From positions 19,978 to 83,977 of IMG/VR virus record IMGVR_UViG_3300044645_001738: DNA of 64,000 nt. One strand, given 5' to 3'. Below, piece after piece: positions 4,597-62,217 of this stretch. The number at the start of each line of letters is the position of its first letter. The first letter of the stretch is position 1. A program made the translations under genes and the position numbers. A model generated the notes under the pieces. That model saw only the letters and a program-made list of their open reading frames with translations. It was not told the origin of the DNA and searched no databases. Origin of the DNA: a virus (lineage: Duplodnaviria; Caudoviricetes).

Positions 4597-4849
4597 AGCG
4601 CCATCCAATGTAGATGATGCCAAGATCAAAATGAACTGCCATCAACACGCAGTGAAAGACTTTGATCTTCAGCTGGAAATGAATGATCTTGAGATTGATA
4701 TGCTCAAAGATCAGGACCAGGTACTGCCGTACAACGAAACACGTGCGGATGAATTAGACCAAAAGAAACTTAAGTTGCTCCTTGGTAAGAGGTTCCATCA
4801 AAATGCTATGAATGCTTATTGGTATTACTTGGCTAAATGTGGTAAATAA
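4532..4849 (+). CDS. hypothetical phage protein
   Basis: Likely start MSNHVWNY at 4532 within track ORF 4274..4849. Confidence 0.6.
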   Translation: MSNHVWNYKHPSIQDNFYLKIEAPSNVDDAKIKMNCHQHAVKDFDLQLEMNDLEIDMLKDQDQVLPYNETRADELDQKKLKLLLGKRFHQNAMNAYWYYLAKCGK

Positions 4850-4855
4850 ACAACA

Positions 4856-6807: not shown

Positions 6808-8142
6808 ATGATTATCCGTTATATCAATGATTATGGTGATGGAACTTCGGGATATGCAGATTACGGTTCTGGAATTGTCGTAACCACTGCAAGTGGTCAG
6901 CCAATTGAAGTAACCAGTACGTCCAGTGGGGTGGTTAACATCCAGCCTGCAGGCGTTGCTTCTGATGCCTTTGGTCGATTGCGTTCTTCCACACCCTTAA
7001 CACTGTTTGATTCCAGCCATCGTTATAAAGATAATGGTCTGTGGACTACAACCAGTGGTGTCGGTGGCACTACAGCATTTAACGCTAATGCTGGACTTGT
7101 AGACCTCAACGTCACAACAACATCTGGCTCTGAAATCATCAGGGAAACAACAAAGGTGTTTGCGTATCAACCAGGCAAGTCCTTGTTGGTGATGTCAACC
7201 TTTGTGATGAACGCATTCAAGACTGGGTTGCGTCAACGGGTTGGCTACTACGGCGCCGACAATGGCATCTATATAGAAAAAGATGGGACCAGTGCGGCAA
7301 CATTTGTTGAGCGCAGTCTTGTAACTGGTTCTGTAACTGAAACCAGAGTTGCTCAATCGAATTGGAATATTGACAAGCTTGATGGTACAGGCGTATCTGG
7401 TATTACGCTTGACCTAACTAAAGCTCAAATCCTGTTCATGGATATTGAGTGGCTGGGTCTTGGTACTGTACGGGTAGGTTTTGTTATTGACGGTAAGTTA
7501 ATTCATTGTCATTCATTCCATCATGCCAACTTAATTACATCTACTTACATCACAACCGCATCGTTACCTTTACGTTATGAAATTAGAAATACTGCTGCTA
7601 CTGCAAGTAGCAGTACACTGAAACAAATTTGTTCAAGTGTTATTTCAGAAGGTGGCTATGAGTTACGTGGCCTCCAGCAAGCCATTGGCACTACAATTAC
7701 TGCACCTTATAGTCTGACTACGGCTGGCACATTTTATCCAGTGATTTCGCTGCGGTTAAAAACAACGGCGCTTGATGCAATTGTCATCTTGACCGCCATC
7801 TCAATTATGTCGGCAGCAGGTACTGCAAACTATGTGTGGCGCGTGGTAGCCAGTGCAACCACTACTGCTGGTACTTGGGTAAGTGCAGGTGCTGACTCTG
7901 CCGTGGAATACAACTTAACTGGTACTGCAACTACGGGCGGACGCGTTCTTGCTCAAGGATATTTTGCTGGCAGCAACCAATCCAGTACTACAATCGACAT
8001 CTTGAAAGAAGCATTGTTTAAATTTCAGTTAGAGCGTAATGGTTTAACTGGTACTCCTTATGAGTTGTCACTTGTTTTGGCTGCTAGTGCAAACACATCA
8101 ACTGTGCATGCTGCATTGGATTGGGAAGAAATCTCAAGATAA
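6808..8142 (+). CDS. conserved phage protein, beta-rich, probably virion-associated
   Basis: DAFGRLR..PLTLFDS, YQPGKS, IEWLGLG, WEEI motifs seen in cyanophage hypothetical proteins; preceded by TACAATAAG. Confidence 0.7.
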   Translation: MIIRYINDYGDGTSGYADYGSGIVVTTASGQPIEVTSTSSGVVNIQPAGVASDAFGRLRSSTPLTLFDSSHRYKDNGLWTTTSGVGGTTAFNANAGLVDLNVTTTSGSEIIRETTKVFAYQPGKSLLVMSTFVMNAFKTGLRQRVGYYGADNGIYIEKDGTSAATFVERSLVTGSVTETRVAQSNWNIDKLDGTGVSGITLDLTKAQILFMDIEWLGLGTVRVGFVIDGKLIHCHSFHHANLITSTYITTASLPLRYEIRNTAATASSSTLKQICSSVISEGGYELRGLQQAIGTTITAPYSLTTAGTFYPVISLRLKTTALDAIVILTAISIMSAAGTANYVWRVVASATTTAGTWVSAGADSAVEYNLTGTATTGGRVLAQGYFAGSNQSSTTIDILKEALFKFQLERNGLTGTPYELSLVLAASANTSTVHAALDWEEISR

Positions 8143-11272: not shown

Positions 11273-12127
11273 ATGGTTGCTAAGATAGATTTATCGGATC
11301 CTTGGATTAAGGTCCAGGATAGGCAACCGGATCTCATGCGGAACCTAAACAGGGCCGCAACCAGAATTACGCTTAACGGCAAAAGGCATTACACCACGCC
11401 GTTACCCACTGGCCCAGCCCCGTCTGTAACTACAATCATATCTGAGACTGCTTCCGAAGCAAACAAACGGAAGCTTGAAATGTGGTCAAAAAATAATCCA
11501 GGTGTTAAGGAGGCCGCTGCCGAAAGGGGGACCGCCATTCACTATGGTATGGAGCAGTACCTAAAAGGGAACAAAACTCCGGAGATCGCTGATGAGTACC
11601 AAGACTTTTGGCAAGGCATGCCGTCAATTTTGGATCAGTTTGACGAAGTCTTATGGGCAGAGACGCCTGTGGTTGATCGGTTTAAATTCACTATTGGCGC
11701 TGATGACGTTGCTCGCGTTTGGGGTTGCGATCCTGACGGGCGAGCTTGGGCTGGTGCTCCCGACATTATCGGTGTGGTTAATAACAAGCTTACTCTCGCT
11801 GATTTGAAGACCAGCGTCAAACCCTACAGTCGCAAGTGGCCTAAAGACCTGGAGAAGGGGTCGCCTGAATGGCGTGATCTCTTGGGTGGTCACATGAAAT
11901 TTAAAAAAACTTTGAAGCAGCTCGCAGCTTACGACTTGGCTATTACCCAGACGCTTGGCATCAAGGTCCAGCAGGCTGCCATCTTGGTATCAACACCGGT
12001 GCGTACACAAGTCTTTAAGATCTCCAGGAATTTTCTTAATGCTTTGCATGCGGATTGGCACAAACTGGTTGAAGAGTATTACACGCAAATGGAAGAGTAT
12101 GGTCAGCAGGACCAGGATCTTGTCTGA
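11273..12127 (+). CDS. PD-(D/E)XK exonuclease
   Basis: PSVTTII, RGTAIH, WAGAPD, LADLKTS, QLAAY motifs. Confidence 0.85.
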   Translation: MVAKIDLSDPWIKVQDRQPDLMRNLNRAATRITLNGKRHYTTPLPTGPAPSVTTIISETASEANKRKLEMWSKNNPGVKEAAAERGTAIHYGMEQYLKGNKTPEIADEYQDFWQGMPSILDQFDEVLWAETPVVDRFKFTIGADDVARVWGCDPDGRAWAGAPDIIGVVNNKLTLADLKTSVKPYSRKWPKDLEKGSPEWRDLLGGHMKFKKTLKQLAAYDLAITQTLGIKVQQAAILVSTPVRTQVFKISRNFLNALHADWHKLVEEYYTQMEEYGQQDQDLV

Positions 12128-12226: not shown

Positions 12227-12412
12227 ATGGAAATCTACGTTTCCGTTGGTGAGTGGATGAATAGTCTTCAGAATCGCATGAATAGTGCGATGGATGGGGA
12301 CTGTTTTTATCTGCCCACCCCTATGCATCTTCATGCTTTTTTCTTGGTGAAGGACCAGGCATTTGCCAATAAAGACTTTAAAGTAGAACTCATGCCATCA
12401 GTTAACGAATGA
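12227..12412 (+). CDS. hypothetical protein
   Basis: ATGA-coupled to the primase; TAGGATAAG upstream. Confidence 0.6.
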   Translation: MEIYVSVGEWMNSLQNRMNSAMDGDCFYLPTPMHLHAFFLVKDQAFANKDFKVELMPSVNE

Positions 12413-15039
12413 CTAATACTTCTCAGCTCTCGCTCAGGCCCGGCGAAATTCGTTTTGATTACATCCCAGCGGATTGGCCTCTTACTCCGCTTGGTGCCAA
12501 CAAGGATCCGTATGTCGCTGGATGGCAGAACAAACCGTTTAGTGTCAAGGAAATTGAAGATGAATTGACAAGCGGTAAGTGTAAGGCTATTGGTCTGCTC
12601 GGTGGTCCTGTTTACAACCATCCGTACGGTTTCATCTGGATTGACATTGATGGCCCATCGGTGTACCAGCTGGTGGAGGAGTTGGCCGATGCACCTTTCA
12701 TTAAGGTGATGCCGCCCACACTGACAATCTTCAGTGGGAAGGAAGGTAGGGAGCGTAGGTTATACCGGGTTAGCCGTGAGAAACATAAGCACATCGTTCG
12801 GAATAAGTACACGTGGCACGCAGCAGTAGACAAAGAAAAGCTTGAGATTCTTTGGAAGCGGCACCAGGGTGTGTTAATGGGGTTACATCCGGAAACGGAT
12901 GGGTACTACACGGCTCCAGACCTTGGGTTTGAGTGGGCAAAGGCTGTGCCTGAAATGCCGGACTTCTTGTTGAATGCCATCATCAACAAGAATGTCAAGC
13001 AAGGTATTCCGGCAAAGGAAACAACGCGTGTTATCGGCCCAGGCTTTGCGATCAATAGTGTTGTGGACCTTGACCGGGATATGAAGCTTGCCGCAGAGGC
13101 AATGTGGGGCATGCCTCCAGAAGCGGCGGATGACTATGACATCTGGATTACGGTCGGTCAATCACTCCATAATCTCGATGAATCACTCCTTGATCAGTGG
13201 GAAGAATGGTCCAAGCAGTCGGACAAGTATAGGGAGGGGGAGTGTCACCGGCGGTGGCTGTCGTTTACTCGTGGCTCTGGTCGCAGCATTGGCTCACTGA
13301 TTCACGTTGCTCGTGAGCAGGGGTGGCAGCCGTCCCAGGAGTATAGGGGGCTGAGTGTTGATGATGCGACATTAGAGCATGCTTCAAAATTATTGGCTGA
13401 AATTGATCTGGAAGAATCTCAAATGACTCCCGTAACCGCTCCATGTGCTGCATCCGATGCCACTCAGACAAATCAATGGCAGTCGCAGGAGCTGGACACA
13501 AAAAACATGAAGTCAAAAGAAGAGAAGAAAACGTCAAAGAACCCGTCATCCAGCAAAATCGTAGATCATTTGCGCTCAACATATAACGGAGATCTGCGCT
13601 TTAGTCAAGCCCACGGTCAATTCTTTATTTATGCTAAAGAAAGTGATGGGCTTTGGTCGCCTCTCACGAAGATCGAAATGATGGGTGACATTCGGGAAAA
13701 GCTGCAAGTACTGCACCTTCCCGGTGGATTCACTTCTAATCTGATGAATGACATCTACCTGCAGCTCCAGGCGGTGTTGGTGTTTGATGATTGGTATGAC
13801 GGTTCCAACTACCTGTTGTTTACCAATGGGGTGCTGGATATCGAGAAGAAGGAGTTGCTTCCATTCAATCGGGGGATGCACCTGACCCAGCAAATGCCTT
13901 ATCGGTATGATCCAGCGGCTGGGTGTGAAGACATCATTAAGTGGCTGAAGCATGTGCAGCACGGTAGCTGGGAACGTGTTCAGGTGTTACGTGCATGGTT
14001 GCGTGCCACGCTACTGGGGCGCTATGAGATCCAGAAGTTTGTGGAGATTGTTGGCCCTGGTAAGTCCGGTAAGTCGACCTATGCAAACCTGGCTGTGGCA
14101 TTGGTTGGTAAGCAAAACACCTACTCAACAGACTTTGAGAATCTGGAGAAGAACAGGTTTGAAGCTGCAAGCTACATGGGCAAGAAGCTTCTGCTGTTCC
14201 AGGATGCTGATAGGTGGGGTGGATCGGTATCAAAGCTGAAGGCAATTACCGGTAATGATTGGATCCGTAGTGAACGCAAGTATCAAAGCGAAGGTCAAGA
14301 TCCGTTTCAGTATCATGGAGTTGTGATGATTACAGCTAATGAAGCTATTCAATCAACTGATTACACTTCTGGCCTTGCGCGTCGCCGCCTTACTATTCCG
14401 TTCGACCGTCCGTTTGAGGGCGGTCAGGCAGAACAAAAGGAACTGATTAAGTTCGATTCCAAGGGTGTCCCCCAGGGTGTGTTCGCTCCCTTGTTGCCAG
14501 GGTTGGTAAACTGGTTGTTGGATATGACTGAGGATGACATGCGTGCTTGTCTCATGGAAACCGGTAAGAAGATTGATTTCTTTCGTAAGTATGAGAAGCA
14601 GCAAAGCCTGCGTTCTAATCCACTGTTGGATTGGATGGATCACAAGTTGGTGTTCCAGCCGAATGTGATGACGCACGTTGGCTTCTGTCAGCAGAATCCA
14701 AATGGAACTGGCGGCTATTACAAGGACAATACGCGTTGGTTGTATGCCAGCTATGCGGAGTTCTGTCGCAACTGCAACGTGGGCATCATGTCACGCGGCA
14801 GGTTTGAGCCCTTGTTCTTGGACATTTGCAGGCACCAGCTCAAACTGAACGTCTACTCCAAGAAGGCGGCGTCTGGTATGCAGGTCTTTAACATTGCCAT
14901 CAAGGAGTCGAATATTGACAGGTACTTACAGCTGCCTTCGGTTGTGGAATTTGCAGCAAACCCTGACCGTTATAAGGATCAATACCCTGAGCTTTTTGTA
15001 CCTACTGGTGAGACAATAGAGAATGATGCAACAATGTAG
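12409..15039 (+). CDS. primase-helicase (Prim-Pol, PriCT-2, D5_N, SF3 helicase)
   Basis: N-terminal IDID AEP motif; YDIWITVGQSLH..W..WS..S.KY (PriCT-2); FTNGVLD; Walker A GPGKSGKST; LKAITGND; RRRL. Confidence 0.92.
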   Translation: MTNTSQLSLRPGEIRFDYIPADWPLTPLGANKDPYVAGWQNKPFSVKEIEDELTSGKCKAIGLLGGPVYNHPYGFIWIDIDGPSVYQLVEELADAPFIKVMPPTLTIFSGKEGRERRLYRVSREKHKHIVRNKYTWHAAVDKEKLEILWKRHQGVLMGLHPETDGYYTAPDLGFEWAKAVPEMPDFLLNAIINKNVKQGIPAKETTRVIGPGFAINSVVDLDRDMKLAAEAMWGMPPEAADDYDIWITVGQSLHNLDESLLDQWEEWSKQSDKYREGECHRRWLSFTRGSGRSIGSLIHVAREQGWQPSQEYRGLSVDDATLEHASKLLAEIDLEESQMTPVTAPCAASDATQTNQWQSQELDTKNMKSKEEKKTSKNPSSSKIVDHLRSTYNGDLRFSQAHGQFFIYAKESDGLWSPLTKIEMMGDIREKLQVLHLPGGFTSNLMNDIYLQLQAVLVFDDWYDGSNYLLFTNGVLDIEKKELLPFNRGMHLTQQMPYRYDPAAGCEDIIKWLKHVQHGSWERVQVLRAWLRATLLGRYEIQKFVEIVGPGKSGKSTYANLAVALVGKQNTYSTDFENLEKNRFEAASYMGKKLLLFQDADRWGGSVSKLKAITGNDWIRSERKYQSEGQDPFQYHGVVMITANEAIQSTDYTSGLARRRLTIPFDRPFEGGQAEQKELIKFDSKGVPQGVFAPLLPGLVNWLLDMTEDDMRACLMETGKKIDFFRKYEKQQSLRSNPLLDWMDHKLVFQPNVMTHVGFCQQNPNGTGGYYKDNTRWLYASYAEFCRNCNVGIMSRGRFEPLFLDICRHQLKLNVYSKKAASGMQVFNIAIKESNIDRYLQLPSVVEFAANPDRYKDQYPELFVPTGETIENDATM

Positions 15040-15392
15040 TGGGAAATGGCCGGCATCTGATACTGGATCTATACGATTGTGATCCAGAGATTTTGGATGA
15101 TTACCAGGAGCTTCAACGATTGCTTGAGGCTTCTTTGGTAATGGCCAAAGCAACTATCCTGCGCATTATTGGCGAGAAGTTTAAGCCGCAAGGTGTCACA
15201 CTATTGGCACTGCTGGCTGAATCCCACGCATCAATTCATTCGTGGCCCGAGATTGGGTATTGTGCAATCGATCTTTATACTTGTGGCGATACCACGCAGA
15301 CGCATCGGGCGGCAGAATTTCTCAAGAAGAAGTTGAAAGCTAAAACTGTAGAGCAAAAAGAGTTGGTACGGTCGACTACTCCGTCGAATTGA
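15039..15392 (+). CDS. speD: S-adenosylmethionine decarboxylase proenzyme
   Basis: GRHLILDLYDC, F.PQGVT, LLAESHASIHSWPE (ES cleavage site), DLYTCG. Confidence 0.95.
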   Translation: MGNGRHLILDLYDCDPEILDDYQELQRLLEASLVMAKATILRIIGEKFKPQGVTLLALLAESHASIHSWPEIGYCAIDLYTCGDTTQTHRAAEFLKKKLKAKTVEQKELVRSTTPSN

Positions 15393-15421: not shown

Positions 15422-16684
15422 ATGGCTAAAAAAACTAAGATTCTTTGGGTTGCTGACTTTGCAGCAATGACCGGTTTCGGCCGTGTCAGTGGTGCGGTAC
15501 TGCCGCGACTGAAGGATGACTTTGAAATTGTGGTGCTCGCATGTAATTGGCATGGAGATCCAACGGATGAGCAGAAAGATTTCAAGATGTATCCTGCGTC
15601 CAACCGATTCCAGCAGGCGCCCTTTGGTGAGGATCGCATTCGGGAGATTGTTGAGAAAGAACAGCCGGATATTGTGTTCAGCTTGAATGATCCTTGGATC
15701 GTTAGTGAACAGTACAGGCGTATTCAAGATCTGCACCAGCAGAAGAAGTTTAAGTTCTGTGGCTACCTCACGATGGATAGCTACAACTGGATTGGTGGCA
15801 TCGATGCACACATCAATGAATGGGATGCGTTGATTGCATTTACGGAATTTGGTGCATACGAATTCTTTAAGGCGGGTATCACCAAGCCGGTCACTGTAAT
15901 TCCACATGGTTTGGATACGGATCTCTTTTATCCCATGGATAAGAAGGAGGCACGCAAGAAGCTGGGGCTGTCGGAGGACATCTTCATCTGTTTGAATGCC
16001 AACAGGAATCAGTTCCGCAAACGGATGGACATTACGATTGCAGCCTTTGCCAAGTTCGCAGTCGGTCGCCCGGATACGCAACTTTATATGCACTGCGGTA
16101 CCAAGGATCAAGGGTGGGATATCATGCCGCTCTTCGGGCGGGAGATGAGTAAGAACGGACTTGATCCAAACGGTCGCATCATCATGACCAATAACAACCA
16201 GGGGCCGCCGAACGTTTCGGTGGAGTTCCTGAATTGCATTTACAACGCGGCTGATATTGGGATCAATACCACCAAGGGGGGTGGCTGGGAGCTAGTCAAC
16301 TTTGAGAATGCTGCCTGCCGTGTGGCACAGGTGGTGCCGGATCACACCAGTACCAAAGAGATTTTTGAGGGCTATGCCCCACTGATTCGTTGCGACCACG
16401 TGGATGTGGACACCAACATGGCACGGGAGATGCCCTGCCCCTCCGACCAACACCTGGCGCAGATCCTTGCCAACCTCTACGACGATCGGGAGTACCTGAA
16501 CAGTGTGGCCGATGCCTGCTACAAGCGGGTGACGGATCCTCAATTTAGTTGGGACTCAGTTGCGTCTCAGTTTGGAGGGGTGTTCCAGGAGGTGATGGAG
16601 GGTGGTGAGCCGGAAGTGGAAGAGAAGCCAAAGAAGAAAAAGAAGGAGAAGAAGGAAAAACGCACGGTTGGGGCTGCGGCGTGA
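15422..16684 (+). CDS. glycosyltransferase family 4 (GT-B)
   Basis: TGFGRV, VIPHGLD..F.P, NRNQFRKR, YNAADI..GGGWEL..FE. Confidence 0.88.
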   Translation: MAKKTKILWVADFAAMTGFGRVSGAVLPRLKDDFEIVVLACNWHGDPTDEQKDFKMYPASNRFQQAPFGEDRIREIVEKEQPDIVFSLNDPWIVSEQYRRIQDLHQQKKFKFCGYLTMDSYNWIGGIDAHINEWDALIAFTEFGAYEFFKAGITKPVTVIPHGLDTDLFYPMDKKEARKKLGLSEDIFICLNANRNQFRKRMDITIAAFAKFAVGRPDTQLYMHCGTKDQGWDIMPLFGREMSKNGLDPNGRIIMTNNNQGPPNVSVEFLNCIYNAADIGINTTKGGGWELVNFENAACRVAQVVPDHTSTKEIFEGYAPLIRCDHVDVDTNMAREMPCPSDQHLAQILANLYDDREYLNSVADACYKRVTDPQFSWDSVASQFGGVFQEVMEGGEPEVEEKPKKKKKEKKEKRTVGAAA

Positions 16685-16734
16685 GACTGGTCTCATGTGA
16701 GACGACTGAGGCTTGATTGGTGCCAAGGTGATGG

Positions 16735-16759
16735 ATCCCCTGGAAACAGGGGATTTTTT
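16735..16759 (+). terminator. intrinsic terminator
   Basis: ATCCCCTG-GAAA-CAGGGGAT followed by TTTTT. Confidence 0.85.
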
Positions 16760-16802
16760 GTAGCAAGGTGTACGCATTGAGGAGGTGGGGTACGGGTGAA
16801 AT

Positions 16803-17018
16803 CCGATAAAACCCCCTTCCTATCTTTACGTGACGCACATGACACTTTACTGAAAGTGTCATTATTTGAGTCAGGGTGAGACAGGAATGAGACGGTGGGA
16901 TTGGTGGGTTGTGCTTATTGTCTCAAGTACAATCTCACTTGAGAATCCTTGACAAATAATGACACTTTCGGCAAAGTGTCATTTGGATCTAATAAAGATA
17001 AACAGGGGGTTTTATCGG
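16803..17018. repeat. 216-bp imperfect inverted repeat with nested palindromes (candidate replication origin)
   Basis: Two 66-bp arms (16803-16868, 16953-17018) match as blocks of 14, 8, 10 and 17 bp separated by unmatched spacers of 4, 10 and 3 bp; TGAGAC/GTCTCA repeats in the core. Confidence 0.9.
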
Positions 17019-17023
17019 GTTCT

Positions 17024-17359
17024 ATGGCTAGACCAGGCGCACCACTGCCACCTCTCTGGTACTTGGAGTCCCAGCTTCGGTTGTCGACTCAGTACCCATC
17101 TGGCCTGGAATGGGCTTGTACCACGGGCTGGCACGCTGAAGGAGACATGGCCGGGAAATACGTCCCAGCCACCCGCTACTACGTGGTGAGGCTGGGGGGA
17201 GGGCAGTACCAGGCCCACAGGCTTGTCTACTTCCTACGCACCGGCCAGGACCCCCTGGAGGCCTCTGTCATTCACGTCGCATCTGACCGTGACAATCGCA
17301 AGGAACTGATCCTTCGTTCCAGATCCCCTACCACCAATCTCATATTGGACTCAAATTGA
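17024..17359 (+). CDS. degenerate HNH-like protein
   Basis: GDMAG..YYVVRL..YQAHRLVYFL.TG.DP..VIH..DN, an HNH_3-like scaffold that is eroded and truncated. Confidence 0.65.
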   Translation: MARPGAPLPPLWYLESQLRLSTQYPSGLEWACTTGWHAEGDMAGKYVPATRYYVVRLGGGQYQAHRLVYFLRTGQDPLEASVIHVASDRDNRKELILRSRSPTTNLILDSN

Positions 17360-17360
17360 C

Positions 17361-18032
17361 ATGGCAAATTTGATTGCTCAGGTTTCCGAACTCAACGCTC
17401 GGCTCAACATTCGCTATTTGCGAAATGCAAATCAATGTGACGACAAGACCCTCGATGAGTACGGCTACTACCGGGGCTACGTGTGTCCGCACAACCACGA
17501 CATACGTGACCAGGAAAACCATTGGTGTTACTACTGTGTCCAGAAAATCTGGAAGAACGTCTGTGGTTTTGACATCAACTATCTGGATCCCAACTACAAA
17601 CACAAATACGCCGCGATCTGGAACCGAATCAATGTCACAACCATGGATGAGTGCTGGCACATACGTGGCAATTCCAAACGTGCGTGCCTTCCTTCTTACC
17701 GTTCTCACTACGCCAAGCAATCATCTGAATACGTCTCGCTCCATAAAGCGGTCTACCAGTGCGCGTGGGGAGATGTTGGTAAGTTTTTTGTGACTCGCGT
17801 GTGTGGCAATCCGGAATGTTTTAATCCTGTACACATGCTTTCCAGCTGGAACAGGGACTATCCCCCTGGCCGCATTCACCCACTCGTCTTGGAATTTGAG
17901 CCAAGTAAATTGATGTGCTATGCCAGGGCGCGGAAGAAAGTACAGGCTGACTCTCTGGCTGCCACGCAGTACAAACAAACGATTACCAATCCACGGGAAG
18001 CAGCACCACCACCTGAATACGATGAGGGTTGA
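17361..18032 (+). CDS. His-Me/HNH zinc-loop protein, possibly catalytically inactive
   Basis: DECWH..HKAVY..VTRVCGNPECFNPVHM where V.H.C.N..C.NP.HL is expected; extra N-terminal CPHNH..CYYC. Confidence 0.7.
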   Translation: MANLIAQVSELNARLNIRYLRNANQCDDKTLDEYGYYRGYVCPHNHDIRDQENHWCYYCVQKIWKNVCGFDINYLDPNYKHKYAAIWNRINVTTMDECWHIRGNSKRACLPSYRSHYAKQSSEYVSLHKAVYQCAWGDVGKFFVTRVCGNPECFNPVHMLSSWNRDYPPGRIHPLVLEFEPSKLMCYARARKKVQADSLAATQYKQTITNPREAAPPPEYDEG

Positions 18033-24610: not shown

Positions 24611-26887
24611 TTAAGGAAGGATGATTAATGGTCCTTGAATTACAAAACCAGATGCACTACCAGAAACAACACCGGAGCAAACAATGGCTGGTGTTGCACC
24701 AGAGGGAGTTGTAACCCGAAGAATACTACCGGTGATATTGGTGAATGCACCCGTAGCACCGGTCACTGTGGCGCCAGAAACTTGTGTACTGAAGTTACCG
24801 TTGACAAAGTTGGCGGTAGTACCAGTGGTTGTCGTACCGGTTAGTGATGTGAAGTTACCACTGACAGCATTTGCAGTTGTGAAATTAGCCGTTGTGCCAG
24901 TAACGGTTGTACCTGAAACAACGGTGGTAAATACACCAGATGCAAAGTTAGCCGTAGTGCCGGTAACGGTTACGCCTGTTACAACAGTAAATGCACCGCT
25001 GATACCCGTGACAGTTGTGAATTGACCCGTATTACCGGTTACGGTTGTGCCAGAGACTCGTGTGGTGAATACGCCACTGGCAAAGTTAGCGGTTGTACCC
25101 GTGACAGTTACACCAGTAACAACAGTAAATGCACCGCTTACACCAGTGATTGTTGTGCCTTGGATCGTTGTGCCGGTTACGGTAGCACCAGACAATAACG
25201 TAGTGAATACGCCAGTGACACCTGTGATTGATTGGTAGTTACCAGTGGTTGCGTTAACGGTATTACCAGTAACCGTCGCACCAGAGACTACGGTCGTGAA
25301 TACGCCAGATGCAAAGTTGGCAGTAGTACCTGTCGTGGTTGTACCAGTTAATGACGTGAAGCTACCAGTGACAGCAGTTGCAGTTGTGAATTGACCTGCA
25401 GTGCCGGTAACAGTGATGCCACTAATTGTTCCAGTGACACTAAGACCGGAAACAATAAAGCCGGATCCCAGTGTTGTTGTATTACCAGAGAATGTAAGGT
25501 TGCCGCCAAACGTTTGGTTGGTTGCCGTTAAGTTCTGGAAAATACCACTTGTGAAGTTGGCGGTTGTACCAGTGACGGTCGTACCTGAAAGCTGTGTTGT
25601 GAATACGCCTGACGCAAAGTTTGCCGTTGTGCCGGTTATGGTCACACCAGTAAGAACAGTAAATGCTCCACTGACGCCAGTGACGGTCGTGAATTGAGCC
25701 GTGGTACCGGTTACGGTTGCGCCTGATAACGATGTAGTAAAGACGCCTGTTACTCCGGTCAGCGATGTAAATGCACCACTAACACCTGTGATTGTTTGTC
25801 CTGTTAACGATGTAAATGCGCCGCTGATGCCAGTAACAGTTGTAAATCGAGCCAGGGTACCAGTTGTAGTTACACCAGTAAGTGACGTAAAGTTTCCTGT
25901 TACAGCATTTGCGGTCGTAAATTGTCCCGTGTTGCCTGTAACGGTGGCACCAGAAACAGACGTTGTGAATACACCAGTAACACCAGTAAGAGACGTATAT
26001 TGCCCAACGTTGCCAGTAATCGTGGCACCCGATAACTGTGTTGTATAAACACCGGATACACCTGTTACAGATGTAAAGACGCCTGTTGCACCAGTAATTG
26101 TGTTGCCGCTGAGCGTACCAGTGACATTGACGTTGCCCTGGAAAAGACCTGAGCCAATGAACGTACTAACGCCAGTTACCGTAAGTGTCGACTGGATAAT
26201 TCCAGTGGCGGCCGTGAGTGTCTGAAAGTTTCCTGTGGTGACGTTAGCGGTAACACCGGTGACAGTTGTCGCTTGAATGGTATTGCCCGTGATTGTGGCA
26301 CCGGATAACTGAGTTGTGAATACGCCAGAAACACCGGTGATGTTTGCACCAGAAATTGATTGGCCTGAGACCGTGGTAAATTGACCAACGTTGCCGGTAA
26401 TTGTCGCACCAGAGAGACTGGTTGTAAAAACACCGGTCACACCAGTAAGAGACTGATAGTTACCTGTGGTTGCTTGGATGTTATTGCCGGTGATAGTGGC
26501 GCCAGATACTCTGTCCGTAAATCGTCCGGACACAAAGTTTGCCATGGAGCCAGTGAAGGTTGTTCCACTGGTAGTGCCGCTGACATTTAAATTGTTTTGG
26601 ACGATAACACCGCTAAATGTTCCAAAGCCTGAGCTTGTTACTGTGCTCAGGATTGTTGTACCACTAACGGTTAAACCACCTTGAATTACAACATTGCCAC
26701 TGATTGTTTCGCCAGTGACGTTTGCATAGTATTGATCTAGGTAGGTACGGAACTGACTGAAGGTAATTTTTTTGTTGCGCAGTACCGGGTCCACTTCAAA
26801 AACGTGGACCAGCGTCATGAGGTCTTCATCAACAATCGCGGTGCCGTCAATCGACGGAAACTCGCTGATCCTTCTATTGGTGGCCAC
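24611..26887 (-). CDS. Thr/Gly-rich repeat fibre protein
   Basis: Many TVTGTTANF(A/T)SGVFTT-type repeats; N-terminal RRISEFP..D..NKKITF anchor-like domain. Confidence 0.8.
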   Translation of the reverse strand: MATNRRISEFPSIDGTAIVDEDLMTLVHVFEVDPVLRNKKITFSQFRTYLDQYYANVTGETISGNVVIQGGLTVSGTTILSTVTSSGFGTFSGVIVQNNLNVSGTTSGTTFTGSMANFVSGRFTDRVSGATITGNNIQATTGNYQSLTGVTGVFTTSLSGATITGNVGQFTTVSGQSISGANITGVSGVFTTQLSGATITGNTIQATTVTGVTANVTTGNFQTLTAATGIIQSTLTVTGVSTFIGSGLFQGNVNVTGTLSGNTITGATGVFTSVTGVSGVYTTQLSGATITGNVGQYTSLTGVTGVFTTSVSGATVTGNTGQFTTANAVTGNFTSLTGVTTTGTLARFTTVTGISGAFTSLTGQTITGVSGAFTSLTGVTGVFTTSLSGATVTGTTAQFTTVTGVSGAFTVLTGVTITGTTANFASGVFTTQLSGTTVTGTTANFTSGIFQNLTATNQTFGGNLTFSGNTTTLGSGFIVSGLSVTGTISGITVTGTAGQFTTATAVTGSFTSLTGTTTTGTTANFASGVFTTVVSGATVTGNTVNATTGNYQSITGVTGVFTTLLSGATVTGTTIQGTTITGVSGAFTVVTGVTVTGTTANFASGVFTTRVSGTTVTGNTGQFTTVTGISGAFTVVTGVTVTGTTANFASGVFTTVVSGTTVTGTTANFTTANAVSGNFTSLTGTTTTGTTANFVNGNFSTQVSGATVTGATGAFTNITGSILRVTTPSGATPAIVCSGVVSGSASGFVIQGPLIILP

Positions 26888-31965: not shown

Positions 31966-32265
31966 TCACCATTTTACACGGTGGCTCCAGTAGCGTGCTG
32001 ACATTTTGTCGGGACTTGAATCTTGCGCATTGTGACGTGCGTAATAAGACCTGCGACGGGCCTTGTCTTTTTCTGAAGTTGGGTTTTTACCTGCGCCTTC
32101 AACTCCTTGCTGTCCAAACCTGATAATTTTTTCTTCACCGTCTTTACATGCTTTTACAACATGCGATTTTGTGGCATGACCTGGAGTGCGCTGCGGTTTG
32201 TTGCAGGCCATCTTATCTTTTGCCAACTTGGCAGCACCAGCGGCTTTCTTACGTTTGTCAGACAT
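31966..32265 (-). CDS. basic conserved phage protein
   Basis: KSHVV.A..K.IRFGQQG..RR.SY.ARH..SARYWS..KW. Confidence 0.8.
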   Translation of the reverse strand: MSDKRKKAAGAAKLAKDKMACNKPQRTPGHATKSHVVKACKDGEEKIIRFGQQGVEGAGKNPTSEKDKARRRSYYARHNAQDSSPDKMSARYWSHRVKW

Positions 32266-34982
32266 CAGAATCCTTTAAACATTGATGTAAATTCACCCAA
32301 GATTTGGCTACCTGTCTTTGATTTGTAGCTTGTTTCTTCATCATCCAATCCTAAGTTAAAGATACTTTTTTCTTTGGTGGTTGTCTCATCTGTTGTATCG
32401 GTGTCCTCATCACCAAAGAAACCTTGGATAGTACCAAGGGATGCGAATGGATCACTTAAGTCAAGTCCTTTTAACTGAAGGGCGCTGCCTGCGCCCGCCT
32501 TGGTGAGAAGCTGCTGCTCACTTCGGTCCGTATCGGGGAACAAATCAGTGTAAAACTCATCTTCTGTTCCCTTGTAACCAGCTTGTTGAAAGACTCTGTA
32601 CATTTCTGTTTCTGATTTGATCGAGTCTGTCTTGTAATCTTCGGGCCTTTCAATGTAATCAACACCTAAAACTTTTTGAGTAGGCTTCTCACCTTTTTCA
32701 TTCAGGTATTTGATCTGCTCTCTGATTTGTTGTGCGGAACCCGTGCGTAATGTCTCTGCAACTAAGTCTTTAAATTCACCCAGGTTCCCCTGAAAATCTT
32801 TAAGACCAACGGCGTCTAGCGCTTTTTGCCAAGTAGCTTTATCCGTTGGGTCCAGGCCCTTTAACATTTCGTCGGCAAACTCTTCTGGCGTAATGAATTG
32901 ACCAAAAATTGTTCCTTGTTTTAATGCTTCCTGCTTAAGAGACGGCAAGATTTTGTTGTAAATTTCATCTTGAACTCTTCCTGCCGTTAATATGTCTTCC
33001 GCCGGATCGTAGCCTAAGCCTTTCCCCTTGACCTGGAAGTGCATTCGCGCAAATTGTTCTTTGTTATTTGGATCAATACCAAAGCGATAAGCCTGGCTTG
33101 CCCAGTATTCATCACCGGCTTTTGCCTTTTCCCAATCATCTGCTACTGCCTGAGACTGTTGAGAGTAAGCATCAGTCCTGGCCTTGTCTCCAGTGGGATT
33201 GAAATAAAAGTCGGCATTAAAATAACGGTCGGGAGTATTTTGAACTTGAGCTAAAAACTGATCGGCACGCAAGTTGGCAACCTGACTAACAGCGTTCAGC
33301 ATGTCCTGCGTTTGGAACGGGTTTTGCTCTTGTTGCCGAACATCAAGGTACTCCGTGAATTCACTGATTGAACGAGAGGTGTTAAAACGTGGGATCAAAT
33401 ACTTGTCCATAAAATCTCTCGCAAACTGCGCTTCAACTTTTATGGTGTCTTTTGCCGTCTCGGTGCTGTAACCAAGTTCAACTTCTTGTTCGTACTTCTT
33501 CTTTAGCTCCGTATCAAACCATTGTTGCCAGTTGTAGGTGGTGCTGTTGTTGACACCTGTTATGTTTTGAAGGCTTTTCTCCAGGGAATCCTGGGACGCT
33601 TTGCCTGATGTAAAAGAAAGAATACCACCAACCCCAGAATCACCAAGGATGCTGTTACTGAGTTCTTTGTTGATGTCCATGATTTCTCCAAAGCCGGAGA
33701 AGCCTTGCATAAGGCCAAGCATTTGTTCTTTTCCCTTGGCCTTCTTCATTTGCTCAATGGTGTCCTTTAACACATTTTGAGTTAACGCACCAAATTTTTT
33801 TGCGTCTACTGTTGCCTTTTCACCAACCGCTTGGTTTACTGCATCTTCTAATTCCGTGACGCCATACCCAGCATTCAAGTTGTAAGCAAAACTTACTTGT
33901 TTGTCTTCTGGTCGTTGGGACAAACGGAACAGTGCGGCAAATTCATCAGGTTTCTCTGGGTTTAAGAACTTCTCTTTGCCCAGTGTTTTCCAGTATTGAT
34001 CACCTGCTTTTGCTTTATCCCATTCAGCAGAAACCTCAGGTACTGCCAAGAGGCGTTCAGTTTGTGTGTCAGTATTAAGGCCTAGCTGGAGGCTACGGGC
34101 AGCCTGAATGTCGGCATCGGTTGGCTTGCGTTCCAGGTATTGGTTTGCTGCTGTTGTTTGTTCTGCGGCATTACCTCGCTTCCCAGCTGCTTTCCCTTGG
34201 GATGTGTAGTGTTGAAGGTAATACGAGTTTTCAGAATACCTTTGGGTGATGTCAATATCATCATTAGCAACTGCGGCTTGCCACTTTTGCCCTACATCTG
34301 GATTGATTGATTTGTAGTACTTTGGATCAAAGTCGCCGTACTGCGGTTTTGCTCCCAGGTTTGCATCCCAGGTTTGTAGCTTTTCAGTTGAATAAAAAGC
34401 TTTGAAGTAATCCTCTAATTGTGATTTAGTTACATCACTGATACCCTGAAGCCTTCTGATCTGCTCCCTTTGCGTAACATAGTCTCCTCCTTGCGTTGAA
34501 TTAGCTGTTGCAAGGACGGTGTTATAGGCGTTGTTTTTGCTTGTGTTCTCAGTGTTTAAAGTTGTATTCTCTTGGTTTCTTTGGGTGTTTAAGTTGTTTG
34601 TTTGTTCATTATTTCTGTAAGTCGTTGCTGTACTTGCAGCTTTATCGCGCAATGCTTGAGTTGCTGACAAATAAGTAAGACTGTCTAGTCCTCCAAACCT
34701 TGAGCTAATTGCTTGTCTAACGCTTTCATCACTAACGTTGTCCCTTGGTACCGACCCTACGCTAATCCAGTCTTTTCCGGGTGATGAAGATTGTGCCGCT
34801 GTGTCGGTTACGACGGGATCGAAAAAATTTTGTCCTTTGAAAACACGCACACGCTTTTCAGTTTTTACCCAAAGATTTACCGTGCCTGAGTTCTCTAGAT
34901 TAGTTGGAAAATTAGTTTGGTAGTCTGTTTTCTCCTGTGCCAGATTCCACTTTTTATTTGTTGGATCGTAAGTTAATGCCAT
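32265..34982 (-). CDS. large virion-associated protein
   Basis: 905-aa ORF; internal repeat W.KAKAGD.YW; FDPKYY..NPDV..HY...GK..G.RG motif. Confidence 0.7.
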   Translation of the reverse strand: MALTYDPTNKKWNLAQEKTDYQTNFPTNLENSGTVNLWVKTEKRVRVFKGQNFFDPVVTDTAAQSSSPGKDWISVGSVPRDNVSDESVRQAISSRFGGLDSLTYLSATQALRDKAASTATTYRNNEQTNNLNTQRNQENTTLNTENTSKNNAYNTVLATANSTQGGDYVTQREQIRRLQGISDVTKSQLEDYFKAFYSTEKLQTWDANLGAKPQYGDFDPKYYKSINPDVGQKWQAAVANDDIDITQRYSENSYYLQHYTSQGKAAGKRGNAAEQTTAANQYLERKPTDADIQAARSLQLGLNTDTQTERLLAVPEVSAEWDKAKAGDQYWKTLGKEKFLNPEKPDEFAALFRLSQRPEDKQVSFAYNLNAGYGVTELEDAVNQAVGEKATVDAKKFGALTQNVLKDTIEQMKKAKGKEQMLGLMQGFSGFGEIMDINKELSNSILGDSGVGGILSFTSGKASQDSLEKSLQNITGVNNSTTYNWQQWFDTELKKKYEQEVELGYSTETAKDTIKVEAQFARDFMDKYLIPRFNTSRSISEFTEYLDVRQQEQNPFQTQDMLNAVSQVANLRADQFLAQVQNTPDRYFNADFYFNPTGDKARTDAYSQQSQAVADDWEKAKAGDEYWASQAYRFGIDPNNKEQFARMHFQVKGKGLGYDPAEDILTAGRVQDEIYNKILPSLKQEALKQGTIFGQFITPEEFADEMLKGLDPTDKATWQKALDAVGLKDFQGNLGEFKDLVAETLRTGSAQQIREQIKYLNEKGEKPTQKVLGVDYIERPEDYKTDSIKSETEMYRVFQQAGYKGTEDEFYTDLFPDTDRSEQQLLTKAGAGSALQLKGLDLSDPFASLGTIQGFFGDEDTDTTDETTTKEKSIFNLGLDDEETSYKSKTGSQILGEFTSMFKGF

Positions 34983-41056: not shown

Positions 41057-42694
41057 TTAAGTTGCGGGCATGCCGCCTTGAGAAGGAATGTACAGATTTC
41101 CTTCCTTGTCAAACATTGAGAAGCCTTGCATGCGAATAAAGGTCGACGGTACGTTAAACAGTTTCTGCATCATTGGCATCATCATTGGTGCCTGGCAGTT
41201 ATACGGTGGTACGTCCATGTAAGAAACGGCGTGCCTGGCTAGTTCGACACTGATTCTTTCTTGGTTTTTTTCATTTGTATCCACAAGTTGTTGTTCCCAT
41301 TCAACTAAACTGCCGTTGCTTATTGGAACATCTGACGGCTCGGGCGGGAATACTCCCTCCTTAAAGCGCATTGCGTAAACATGTTTGCAATACCGAAATT
41401 CATCTAAGACTGGGGTCCACGTATCCGTCAAGGATACCAACTCATTTCCTACCGTGGAGTAGTCAGCGTAAGTCGGCAAGCCGTCTGATTTTGCACCAGG
41501 TAATGCTGGGTCTGTCCCTCTTAAGTAAACAGAGCCAAAGTCTGTAAACAAACCAGGACTGTCCCTGGTCGTACCTTCTACTACCGATGAGTTTGGTGTG
41601 ATGGTTGGTGGAACATTATATTCTGGTGCAGGGGCAACAATCTGCATTCCACGATTGACATTACCTGGTGTCATTGCATTATTGTTGACGAGACCATTGA
41701 GCGTAATGATTTCCTTGCGACCAGGCTTCACGTTGCCGATGCTATTCCTGGGGAAACATCTACGGTTGGAATCTTTTAGATTCATCATGAATGCATAATC
41801 TCGCCTTGTGAAATCTTGGCAAGAACAGCAGTAACGCGTACCCGTCATGAAGAAACGCCCCACGTTTGGCGGCCTGGTAGCAGGAGTAACCAGTGCTCGA
41901 TCTGGGGTTGCCTCAACGGAACCACGCTTGCGAAGTGTCAATACACCCGTGAATGGGTTGGTGTCTACCAGGATGGCTTGAACGTATCCGTAGCGCTTCT
42001 GTGTTAACGGATCAATCGTATCCCTGGTAATCGGCACACCATTCTGAGTGATAATTCGATCCTCTAAGATCTCACCGTTAATTGCCTTGAGTCCCCCTGG
42101 TACTCCTGGGAGTGCAACGTATAGCGGAGGTGGTAATGGATTTTGTGTACTCCAATCACCAGCCAACTGGACGTACCAATACTCATCATCTTCCGTTACG
42201 GAAGCAATCGAAGCAGTTCTTGTGGTTATGTAAAATTGCGGATCAAACCACTGACCAATGTTTTCATAGTTGTTGAATTGCGCGGCATGCCAATAGAACG
42301 GATTGGTAACGCGAGTGTTGCGTATGTTATCAAACCGAAGACTTCCTGCGACCCGGATCCCGGACCAGTGCATCCCAAACTCTTTGTTGACTGTTGGGAA
42401 ACCTTTGAAGATACCAGGCAATACTGGTGGGTTAGACCCAGGGGTTGATGTTGCTCCTTGTGGGATTGGTACTTGGTATAAGAATGGATATTCGTACGAC
42501 GTATCCGTTACCGATGCTGTGGCCAGCTCGTAACCACGGCGCCAACGTGCCCAAGAGGACTCCCGATCGAGAGCCGCAAAAGAGTTTGGGACGCTGCCCT
42601 GTGAAAACTCTGTTGTAATCGGTTTTACTTTTGGCGGTTCAAAAGCTCGTTGCTTGCTGAAACCGTCAAACGAACCACCAAATTTTTTTGGCAT
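41057..42694 (-). CDS. hypothetical protein with split SWIM-like motif
   Basis: YCCSCQDF ... YCKHVYA separated by about 140 aa. Confidence 0.65.
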   Translation of the reverse strand: MPKKFGGSFDGFSKQRAFEPPKVKPITTEFSQGSVPNSFAALDRESSWARWRRGYELATASVTDTSYEYPFLYQVPIPQGATSTPGSNPPVLPGIFKGFPTVNKEFGMHWSGIRVAGSLRFDNIRNTRVTNPFYWHAAQFNNYENIGQWFDPQFYITTRTASIASVTEDDEYWYVQLAGDWSTQNPLPPPLYVALPGVPGGLKAINGEILEDRIITQNGVPITRDTIDPLTQKRYGYVQAILVDTNPFTGVLTLRKRGSVEATPDRALVTPATRPPNVGRFFMTGTRYCCSCQDFTRRDYAFMMNLKDSNRRCFPRNSIGNVKPGRKEIITLNGLVNNNAMTPGNVNRGMQIVAPAPEYNVPPTITPNSSVVEGTTRDSPGLFTDFGSVYLRGTDPALPGAKSDGLPTYADYSTVGNELVSLTDTWTPVLDEFRYCKHVYAMRFKEGVFPPEPSDVPISNGSLVEWEQQLVDTNEKNQERISVELARHAVSYMDVPPYNCQAPMMMPMMQKLFNVPSTFIRMQGFSMFDKEGNLYIPSQGGMPAT

Positions 42695-53844: not shown

Positions 53845-55374
53845 TCAGTAATCAAGGTGAAGCTGTCCTTTTCTTGCTAATCCAGTAACAAGCCAGACGA
53901 GAGCGTCAACACAATCGTCGTGACTACTTACGCCAAAGTTGGTAAGCTCTTCAAACATATTGGTGAAATTACGAAAACGATTGAAGATGATCTTGCGGTC
54001 CTCAAACATACCCATAATGCCACGGAAGCGAGCCAACTTATCTGCCCTGAAACCTTTGACGGGATGCCAAATCAAATTGTAAAGACCTTCATTGTTCAAG
54101 CAAACACGTTTGAAGTCTGCCTCCAGGGATGCCTGGTACTGTACGGCCTCACTCCAAATGTCGCACGTTGAATAGCTGGGGTAATACAAACCGCTTTGTT
54201 CGTCTTTGGCAATCACTGACCAATCATTCAACAACTCCTTGAGGGCATCAAGTTTTTCAAGGTTACCCATGACGCGAATACGTCGGTAATCAATGATATG
54301 AATGCGGTCGCCAATGCGACCACCAAGAATCATAACCGTGTAATCGTTTTTCTCTTTAGTGCCAGCGGAGAGGTCAACCCCAACTCCAAGGGCGTCAAAC
54401 TCCGTTGCAATTTCCGCTTTTACAATCAACTCCGGAGCCAACGAAAGTTCGTTCTGCCGGATGACTTGATTCATGTACTGGAACGAGAAAGCAATTGGTG
54501 CCTGCCGTTTTTTCTCCTTCAGGTAATCCAATGACCACATGTCCGGCCAATACGATTCCTCTTCGCCAGTGATGGGATTGTTTTGAATTGCTGAAAGGAT
54601 AATCTGTTGCCAGTTGTTTTGTTCGTTGAATGTTGTGGAGTGAATGTCATCGTGTCTGAAGCGAGTACCAAGACAGATTGCTCGTGCACCTTCAAACATG
54701 GTGGGTGCAATCACAGCATTCCAGTTGTCCTGCATCTGTTTCCTGATGTCAGGGTTGGCAATATCTGCGGCTGACTTAATGGCGTCATCAATCATGACCA
54801 AGTGCGAACGCTTGGAAGTCACCGAACCCTTGAGGCCTGCTGCGCAAAGCGTAAACTGTTCGTCACCTGTTACGTCAATGCCAGCAAACTTGTGATCAAT
54901 TGACCAGTACTCATTACTGGTGGCGTTCTTCAGAAGGCGAACTTTAGGGAAAACCTCTTGGTATCGTTTGCTTTCAATGATGCGTTTGATGGTGGAAGAT
55001 TTGGAACGAGCAATGTCAACCGTATAGGACAGATACAGAATCTGCAGTGGCAGCCCTGCGTGCGTGTGGATGCCAATGGCCCACGCCGTAAGCAGACCCA
55101 ACACTGTGGACTTGGCAGAACCCCTGGGCGCCAGGAGATCCACATTGGGACCAGCGATCTTAATGAGGCAACTGCTATCCTCCTCTGTGACGAAGTGTCG
55201 ATGCCAGTTGAGGTGATGAGCAGCCGGTGGTTTATCTGCTACGTATTCACAGAAGAAGCCAAAATCTTCCTGGGCTTTCTTCAGTGCTTCTGCGTTACGT
55301 GGCTTGCGTATTTGCTGTCTGCGTGCGGCGGCTTGAGCATTGCGGCGGTAAGCAAGATGCGTATAGCTTGGCAC
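53845..55374 (-). CDS. terL: terminase large subunit
   Basis: Walker A APRGSAKST, Walker B VMIDD, GTRF..DD, GVDLS, HDDCVDA. Confidence 0.95.
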   Translation of the reverse strand: MPSYTHLAYRRNAQAAARRQQIRKPRNAEALKKAQEDFGFFCEYVADKPPAAHHLNWHRHFVTEEDSSCLIKIAGPNVDLLAPRGSAKSTVLGLLTAWAIGIHTHAGLPLQILYLSYTVDIARSKSSTIKRIIESKRYQEVFPKVRLLKNATSNEYWSIDHKFAGIDVTGDEQFTLCAAGLKGSVTSKRSHLVMIDDAIKSAADIANPDIRKQMQDNWNAVIAPTMFEGARAICLGTRFRHDDIHSTTFNEQNNWQQIILSAIQNNPITGEEESYWPDMWSLDYLKEKKRQAPIAFSFQYMNQVIRQNELSLAPELIVKAEIATEFDALGVGVDLSAGTKEKNDYTVMILGGRIGDRIHIIDYRRIRVMGNLEKLDALKELLNDWSVIAKDEQSGLYYPSYSTCDIWSEAVQYQASLEADFKRVCLNNEGLYNLIWHPVKGFRADKLARFRGIMGMFEDRKIIFNRFRNFTNMFEELTNFGVSSHDDCVDALVWLVTGLARKGQLHLDY

Positions 55375-61990: not shown

Positions 61991-62217
61991 CAGCCCTCAG
62001 ATTTCTTCTGGTCTTTTTTCTTCTTTAATCCTACCAACGTTTGGCGAAGCCGTGCTTGCTTAACTGTTTTCTCATCGTACTTATCCGGATTGGAAAGAAC
62101 ATTTTCCTGGAGCTGAGCAGAAGTAATGCCTTTCTTTTTGGCTTTAGCTGTGAAGACGCCTTCCTTGATGTCAGCGCCTTGGATCCACTTTTTATCTTTC
62201 TTGTTTTTGTTAGTCAT
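61990..62217 (-). CDS. Lys-rich conserved phage protein
   Basis: KKWIQ..IK.G.FT..A..KQARL.QTL. Confidence 0.75.
   Translation of the reverse strand: MTNKNKKDKKWIQGADIKEGVFTAKAKKKGITSAQLQENVLSNPDKYDEKTVKQARLRQTLVGLKKKKDQKKSEG

Follow-up and report, generated by a model that had tools for sequence, protein, structure and literature searches.

What does a large inverted repeat do in the short non-coding interval ahead of a small nuclease operon in a virus of lake water? The window analyzed here, 64,000 nucleotides of viral DNA (bases 19,978-83,977 of the 83,977-bp IMG/VR virus record IMGVR_UViG_3300044645_001738; coordinates are those of the window unless marked genome), has 340 nt of non-coding DNA between the stop codon of a glycosyltransferase (GT) gene and the start of a gene for a small HNH endonuclease, and this interval holds a 216-bp element made of two arms with nested palindromes, which the initial annotation had proposed as a bidirectional replication origin. 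We view the element as a cis-acting DNA site and tentatively favor, as its most likely role, that of a phage replication origin of the kind described for plasmid pRN1 and phage BIP-1. A promoter probably lies in or beside its right arm, for the HNH gene and the gene that follows, which encodes a conserved Cys/His-rich protein of 223 aa (hereafter P223), and the site may thus have a double role. The element and its immediate surroundings are built as follows, with the strand given where a feature has one:

16682-16703: triplet TGAGAC-tg-GTCTCA-tg-TGAGAC, overlapping the GT stop codon
16735-16762, + strand: terminator-like hairpin ATCCCCTG-GAAA-CAGGGGAT followed by a T run, read from the sequence
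16800-16868: left arm, consisting of the outer block (A)AATCCGATAAAACCCCC, a 4-nt spacer, TATCTTTA, a 10-nt spacer, palindrome 1 and TATTTG
16839-16862: palindrome 1, ATGACACTTT-ACTG-AAAGTGTCAT
16869-16952, + strand: polar core of 84 nt with G runs on the + strand, GC skew +0.38
16953-17021: right arm, the mirror of the left, ending just 5' of the ATG at 17024
16958-16983: palindrome 2, AATGACACTTT-CGGC-AAAGTGTCATT

The two arms, each of 69 nt and 84 nt apart, are 83% complementary without a gap, and their spacers are equal in length and unlike in sequence, just as the initial annotation had described in speaking of arms mirrored block for block; the right outer block (17005-17018) pairs with a block 200 nt upstream. 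Each arm does carry a palindrome of its own. Both palindromes are perfect, with stems of 10 and 11 bp and loops of 4 nt, and rank among the five longest perfect hairpins of the genome, and the motif TGACACTTT-N4-AAAGTGTCA that they share occurs at 16840 and 16960 and at no other site in the window or the genome (chance expectation 0.01; two matches in none of 100 shuffles). The terminator-like hairpin, with a perfect 8-bp stem and a 4-nt loop, is also found at near-identical loci. Within the core lie TGAGAC at 16877 and 16888, GTCTCA at 16920, ATCTCA at 16932, a local hairpin TCTCAAGT-N8-ACTTGAGA and a TTGACA at 16949. With the flanking copies included, TGAGAC occurs at 16682, 16698, 16877 and 16888 and GTCTCA at 16564, 16690 and 16920, which places 7 of the 28 genome copies inside 370 nt; none of 20,000 random placements reached this number (maximum 5), and the facing repeats and their extra copies at 16682-16703, noticed at the outset, are thus significantly clustered. 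As an inverted repeat the element is single-copy and the strongest of the 83,977-bp genome, scoring 33 against 13 for the next and a median of 8 (234 distinct best matches in 631-nt windows). Both strands fold as a long hairpin, as RNA or DNA, far above shuffles (z -11 and -13.5), which is a consequence of the inverted repeat itself. The two-fold symmetry originally claimed holds for the arms; the core between them is polar, and the element is therefore not fully two-fold symmetric.

The virus is an S-EIVl-like cyanophage. Its record is linear without a terminal repeat and has a CheckV completeness of 100%, the closest GenBank phage is Synechococcus phage S-EIVl (75% DNA identity in the GT gene), and in the GenBank phage collection the flanks of the element match S-EIVl alone, with no match at all for the non-coding part; public runs in which the region is present come from lake-water metagenomes, 24 runs having been considered, all in the form of contigs. 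Viral contigs scanned with the palindrome yielded 11 loci, of which 9 have both copies 120 bp apart in a region 78-97% identical to the window, the remainder being a distant relative (L006, on the same contig as L040) and a copy in an unrelated context (L008). A search with the GT protein recovered 62 loci, 58 of them with HNH (48) or P223 alone (10) downstream, usually in the gene order S-adenosylmethionine decarboxylase, GT, gap, HNH, P223, P314. In three loci (L048, L054, L055) the GT has moved past P223, leaving HNH/P223 upstream of it, and the palindrome or inverted repeat moves with HNH/P223. At each of the 58 loci we took the best ungapped inverted repeat in the 630 nt 5' of HNH/P223, with the other 631-nt segments of the same locus as controls. 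The score was at least 15 in 29 loci and above all own-locus controls in 43 (control maxima 9-13), counts that are not independent, the loci being interrelated. The position is kept even in relatives whose GT protein is only 57-67% identical, and the arm sequences are wholly lineage-specific: L028 has arms of 67 nt, L073 and L038 arms of 81 nt, and L027 arms of 86 nt. In the isolate S-EIVl the element (KJ410740 complement 7830-7968) combines arms of 29 nt with a perfect inner repeat of 13 nt, and a third copy of its arm motifs overlaps a TATAAT box about 25 nt 5' of the next gene.

Ten lineages have a layout in common: 1) the stop codon that closes the upstream operon; 2) a GC hairpin and a T run, often followed by a GTCTCA-N3-TGAGAC palindrome; 3) the left arm; 4) a core with a tendency to G-richness of the + strand (in 23 distinct relatives' cores the skew is positive in 16, negative in 6 and zero in 1); 5) the right arm; and 6) an ATG 5-110 nt further on. 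The short repeats recur in the same place. TGAGAC/GTCTCA has a density of 2.43 per kb in the relatives' upstream regions as against 0.42 per kb in the rest of the loci, with at least two copies in 20 of the 58 loci, and TCTCA-N0-4-TGAGA palindromes number 19 in 32.8 kb of upstream regions as against 3 in 413 kb elsewhere (15 of 52 distinct loci). Other lineages have 6-9-mers of their own in 4-9 copies, such as GGTATA in L028 (nine copies) and CTATAC in L041 (seven copies). Both place and symmetry are thus conserved in the orthologous intervals that the initial annotation had singled out for alignment, and judged from this comparison the element is one of a class of symmetric elements that S-EIVl-like cyanophages keep at a conserved position. 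The small palindrome also turns up in other settings. Single copies stand in unrelated AT-rich contexts in L008, L081 and L084. A scan of genome contigs found 51 stretches, mostly unrelated repeats in metagenome-assembled genomes (MAGs) of Saprospiraceae and Eubacteriales, a Leptolyngbya match being a plain hairpin. The 22-bp palindrome is multi-copy in L089, L091, L095, L109, L110, L114, L121, L123 and L131, which belong to one Eubacteriales MAG, and in several Saprospiraceae MAGs, in contexts that seem unrelated to the phage. The palindrome alone is not diagnostic, since most of the bacterial matches are unrelated repeats.

In an alignment of 12 window-family elements (A3), six base pairs have changed on both sides, all of them in the outer helix, and none is broken, values that none of 500 shuffles reached. 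The outer block comes in three distinct versions in this family, and the spacers beside it vary without mirroring. The stretch 16946-17009, that is the right arm together with the last 7 nt of the core including TTGACA, is invariant in the 12 sequences bar one base, even where overall identity falls to 78% (A3 columns 152-215, the exception being column 192 in L009). This invariance, like the uncompensated changes in the left arm of L009, speaks against a strict symmetry. The initial annotation had taken conserved blocks with free spacers as a sign that the arms are no recent duplication, and the compensated outer-block changes bear this out, as they point to a maintained rather than a decaying duplicate; on the strength of these substitutions we regard the complementarity of the arms as being under selection. 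A comparable pattern is seen in a second group of loci, cluster C (L040, L079, L030, L033), where a box X occurs three times, twice in direct and once in inverted orientation. Four versions of the box exist, and within each genome all three copies agree. These variants sit in regions that are otherwise 90-99% identical; between L040 and L079 box X has switched despite a GT that is 99% identical, an HNH protein differing at 1 residue and P223 proteins 95% identical.

A metagenome contig with an integrated island (L083:1-2595), which has a tRNA-Ser, a P4-type integrase and an AlpA-like gene, carries two direct copies of a hairpin unit, comprising X, a T-rich stretch, the ATGACACTTT-N4-AAAGTGTCAT palindrome and X', 5' of a 102-aa helix-turn-helix (HTH)-like open reading frame (ORF), and ends before the next genes. 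The two units differ at one position of X and each is compensated inside its own unit, which argues for base pairing and against a protein that reads X. The 102-aa ORF has no relative in the viral contigs, and the island proteins have no homologue in the phage. On a more speculative reading, the element would be built from a portable hairpin unit of box X, T-rich stretch, ATGACAC...GTGTCAT palindrome and X', the unit that the tRNA-Ser-integrated island has in two direct copies. Two such units, inverted around a polar, G-rich core with TGAGAC, would let a Prim-Pol/SF3 helicase load and prime in both directions, and the rapid, concerted switching of box X would determine which replicon is recognized when phages of one lineage infect the same cell. 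In this detailed form we consider the idea rather unlikely.

The loop of palindrome 1 (16849-16852) reads ACTG in the window, L007, L014 and L082; it is CGGC in L009, and a further seven near-identical genomes have CAGT, the reverse complement of ACTG. The loops of the two L083 units are CGCC and GGCG. Since loops are flipped among near-identical genomes, the small repeats must undergo recombination or template switching as DNA; loop flipping by itself is uninformative about function. Together with the size of the element and its terminal inverted repeats, which recall a miniature inverted-repeat transposable element (MITE), the flipped loop is what speaks for a selfish or neutral palindrome, whether MITE-like, an invertible segment, a phage attachment site (attP) or a hairpin-telomere junction, or else for an assembly artefact. 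This reading is nevertheless scarcely probable at all, given the same position in relatives with so divergent a GT. A MITE is rejected on the single copy, the fixed position in distant relatives and the lack of a target-site duplication visible at the arms; an attP or invertible segment on the lack of any match to PF00589 or PF00239 (integrase, resolvase) in the 83,977-bp record; and a hairpin-telomere junction on a core of 84 nt that is not self-complementary and has its marked skew, protelomerase-specific families lying outside the search. The large terminase gene is 37 kb away, and nothing therefore links the site to packaging. As to an artefact, independent assemblies carry the element collinearly, contigs from public runs X1 and X10 spanning it with no strand-changing joint listed, and the same facts make improbable both the MITE and the misassembly that the initial annotation had named among the possible refutations.

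If one of the strands encoded a structured non-coding RNA or a processing hairpin of the RNase III type, the long hairpins of both strands and the compensated outer helix would be in keeping with it. Among 25 distinct arm pairs (loci scoring at least 15 only, duplicates removed) there are 26 G.T, 46 A.C and 68 other mismatches, a spectrum that lacks the wobble signature of a + strand RNA; for the - strand, on which A.C becomes G.U, the excess is weak and non-independent. This excess of A.C over G.T is in favor of an RNA, whereas 68 of the 140 mismatches are non-wobble on either strand, Rfam 15 covariance models gave no match up to E 1 on both strands of 16400-17400, a terminator lies upstream, and a promoter and terminator consensus scan of 16400-17400 found no sigma-70 promoter (nor did it list the terminator-like hairpin at 16735-16762). 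Moreover, the stem sequence of the small palindrome is kept across lineages while the distance between its halves varies from 10 to 12 nt, which suggests recognition of a sequence and not a purely structural RNA stem. The single RNA run, X24, has 3 contigs, all outside the element. We consider an RNA very improbable and hold with moderate confidence, on these grounds, that the element acts at the DNA level.

The case for an origin also draws on the gene neighborhood, in which every gene around the element is on the + strand:

11273-12127, + strand: exonuclease
12409-15039, + strand: primase-helicase of 876 aa (Pfam Prim-Pol, PriCT_2, D5_N and DUF5906/SF3; PHROG DNA primase match), the proposed initiator
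15039-15392, + strand: S-adenosylmethionine decarboxylase, an auxiliary gene between primase-helicase and element
15422-16684, + strand: GT, an auxiliary gene between primase-helicase and element
17024-17359, + strand: HNH_3-like small endonuclease of 111 aa (PHROG 99 match, E 6.7e-7)
17361-18032, + strand: P223, 223 aa, conserved and Cys/His-rich (PHROG 1872, 'endonuclease')
genome 17151-19016: family A DNA polymerase
53845-55374: large terminase

Two proteins of unassigned function follow downstream of P223. The primase-helicase matches PF09250, PF08707, PF08706 and PF19263, all above cut-offs, and aligns with the replication protein of phage BIP-1 over 624 residues (BLASTP E 1e-10). An AlphaFold (AF2) model of its last 236 aa, based on an alignment of 28 sequences (A4), contains a helix-helix-hairpin domain with a predicted local distance difference test (pLDDT) score of about 90 over fragment residues ~100-215, and the best Foldseek match of this model in the PDB is 1ka8_A, the origin-binding domain of phage P4 (E 3.2e-3, probability 1.00), followed by the winged helices of RFX, STIV F93 and Orc1/Cdc6. 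The C-terminal domain is thus, as modeled, a winged helix whose nearest structural relative is the P4 origin-binding domain.

Enzymes of this design have a precedent for a stem-loop origin. In plasmid pRN1 (PMC4234260), a stem-loop of about 100 nt, located after a terminator downstream of orf904, is described as required for replication and functional when relocated, and as conserved among the pRN plasmids in structure and not in sequence. For phage BIP-1 the same source reports a protein of matching layout, PriCT_2 included, whose gene is likewise followed by a large stem-loop, and its authors proposed bidirectional initiation. A second source maps the same pRN1 region (PMC3869888). Our own examination of BIP-1 confirmed arms of 23 nt, 52 nt apart, right after the replication gene. 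The locus considered here agrees with these systems in several respects: 1) the putative initiator combines a Prim-Pol, a helical PriCT-type domain, an SF3 helicase and a C-terminal winged helix (modeled); 2) the non-coding element comes after a terminator, downstream of the operon of the initiator; 3) as in pRN1, it is a large inverted repeat with a structure kept among relatives and a sequence that is not; and 4) bidirectional initiation is proposed from symmetry. Unlike the pRN1 stem-loop, which is about half as large, it measures 216 bp, with 69-nt arms and a nested perfect palindrome in each, TGAGAC repeats lie in a polar, G-rich core, two auxiliary genes intervene between initiator and element, it adjoins an HNH nuclease operon, and its origin role is a proposal drawn from the comparison.

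Two further systems offer partial parallels. The ori/crr of phage P4 is bound by the winged-helix origin-binding domain of the alpha primase-helicase (PMC4234260; PDB 1ka8), and this domain is the best structural match of the C-terminal domain here; short direct and inverted repeats clustered at one locus are a further parallel. The present locus differs in having, according to Pfam, a Prim-Pol and no Toprim (DnaG-type) primase, where P4 alpha is of the bacterial Toprim type, and in a winged helix that is almost constant across lineages with different repeats. P4 has arrays of octamer repeats at two sites, ori and crr, and not one large palindrome. The core origin of polyomaviruses such as SV40 is served by an SF3 helicase initiator and presents four short motifs as two facing pairs around a dyad. 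By analogy, the two TGAGAC copies facing GTCTCA and ATCTCA, the flanking palindromic and AT-rich parts and the SF3 helicase of the present locus may correspond to that arrangement; unlike in SV40, no homology extends to the DNA-binding domain or the motif, and the element is much larger.

We infer an initiation scheme in which the primase-helicase would use its C-terminal winged helix to bind short repeats within the element or next to it, with TGAGAC/GTCTCA as a candidate motif for this lineage, and would oligomerise on the two-fold symmetric DNA. The arms with their nested palindromes would favor extrusion of a hairpin or cruciform and melting of the core, and an identical signal on both strands could allow priming and fork movement both ways.

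Several observations weigh against an origin. The score stays below 15 in the other 29 of the 58 relatives, and in L009 the inner left-arm changes are uncompensated. The core is not AT-rich. The winged helix is nearly unchanged between lineages with different repeat motifs and cannot therefore explain the lineage-specific boxes; from its constancy it may instead read a feature common to the lineages. Between outer-block variants the primase-helicase as a whole keeps 99.7% identity. The element is never more than about 110 nt from the HNH/P223 start, even where extra genes follow the GT, while anything between about 0.4 kb and more than 3 kb separates it from the primase-helicase gene. Further, a strong inverted repeat goes with the presence of HNH (28 of 48 loci as against 1 of 10; Fisher p 0.012, the loci not being independent). 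Nor does the GC skew help. The initial annotation had seen a + strand that is G-rich to the left and C-rich to the right, and the values confirm a local contrast, the skew being +0.13 to +0.16 at 12-17 kb and falling to about -0.05 at 17-19 kb. By the usual rule, a change from G-rich to C-rich has the polarity of a terminus, which is the polarity of the change at the element. Among the relatives the GT gene is G-rich (mean +0.074) and HNH and P223 are neutral, and in L048 and L054 the GT keeps its skew even though it comes after P223; since it is unchanged after this rearrangement, the skew belongs to the genes. The cumulative curve of the full genome, which had been suggested as a check, reaches its lowest point at genome 24,625 and its highest at genome 71,301, with no genome-wide inflection at the element. 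We accordingly rejected GC skew as evidence for the origin, its extremes lying elsewhere, its polarity being wrong and its course following the genes. A 259-nt gap at 4597-4855 that coincides with the global minimum was also set aside, as it is probably coding and has no notable repeats. The origin originally suspected near the SF3 primase-helicase thus gains from the pRN1/BIP-1 precedent and the modeled winged helix, and loses by the skew and by an element that follows the HNH-P223 operon start no less closely than it follows the primase gene.

This last association leads to the control region of the HNH-P223-P314 operon as an alternative, with a promoter and operators (palindromes and boxes) for a phage regulator and, in the window subfamily, also a long-range stem that would hide the HNH translation start in read-through transcripts. 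A terminator precedes the element, and the next operon therefore needs a promoter of its own. The element's adherence to the HNH/P223 start through changes of gene order or added genes, together with its association with HNH, fits such a role, as does the almost invariant stretch 16946-17009 with its perfect TTGACA in an arm that ends just 5' of the ATG. In S-EIVl the third arm-motif copy overlaps the TATAAT ahead of the next gene, and in the integrated island the hairpin unit stands between divergent genes, the alpA-like and the HTH-like. Translation start sites within hairpins are known from the late genes of phage T4, and the right outer block of the window subfamily, just 5' of the ATG and paired with an upstream block, resembles them; unlike the T4 cases, the arrangement is not general in the relatives, and no internal late promoter was identified here. 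In most relatives the right arm ends 40-110 nt 5' of the ATG, which means that start-site occlusion is not general, and there is no G.U bias on the + strand. The sigma-70 scan, too, found no promoter. Neither the palindromes nor the TGAGAC clusters recur in the genome, which would suit an autoregulator but not a general phage regulator, and 216 bp with at least three kinds of motif is larger and more complex than usual operators. All told, a pure control region is the main and a serious rival, though somewhat less probable than the origin; should it be correct, it would be an unusually elaborate one for a nuclease operon, and the three-way switching of box X would need an explanation.

The constant adjacency of the nuclease genes also raises the prospect that the element is the DNA target of the HNH_3-like and P223 proteins, which would nick or cut the hairpin or cruciform, for example to start recombination-dependent or nick-primed replication. 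The HNH_3-like gene is the fastest-evolving among the neighboring genes, its catalytic-type residues are invariant (H65, R66, H84, D90, N91 and R92 in alignment A1), and in L061:5812-6822 it is fused with P223 in a single ORF of 337 aa, which suggests that the two proteins work together; its profile has no match in the PDB. P223 is conserved in all 58 loci with invariant C42, H46, C56, C59, C148, C153 and H158 (alignment A2). Its AF2 model has a pLDDT of 85.9 and finds no Foldseek match below E 1, and the protein has no significant PDB or Pfam match; the top weak matches are Smad MH1, I-PpoI and NFI, DNA binders of the His-Me finger type without exception (I-PpoI with a PDB profile E of 0.73). 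As a weak lead from these comparisons, P223 may have a His-Me finger fold. Smad recognizes GTCT/AGAC, and the dimeric His-Me finger proteins I-PpoI and Smad MH1 that P223 weakly resembles bind short palindromic sites, but these similarities are all non-significant (E above 0.7). Likewise, in L007, L013 and L014 the outer-block variant is accompanied by six amino-acid changes at the N-terminus of HNH, but no such tracking is seen in cluster C, where the boxes switch while HNH differs at 1 residue and P223 is 95% identical. The hairpin loops are not conserved, which makes a nick site in the loop unlikely, and the 10 relatives without an HNH gene still keep the non-coding gap. We therefore judge a nuclease target to be quite improbable. 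In the S-EIVl record two small hypothetical genes are annotated on the opposite strand (L077:8619-8882, KJ410740 7462-7725) inside the 5' part of the P223-homologous ORF, whose start is annotated only at locus position 8877. Elsewhere in the window, four large ORFs of 545-905 aa have no PHROG match at E 1e-5 (24611-26887, 32265-34982, 41057-42694 and 62214-63902).

S-EIVl-like phages constitute a widespread freshwater and polar cyanophage lineage, and a full-text literature search, with supplements outside its range, found no description of a replication origin for them. If the element is the origin, the pRN1 model, which has an experimental basis, would extend to a large group of tailed phages, and the natural compensatory variants, taken together with the isolate S-EIVl, would provide a system for separating recognition of structure from recognition of sequence by replication initiators.

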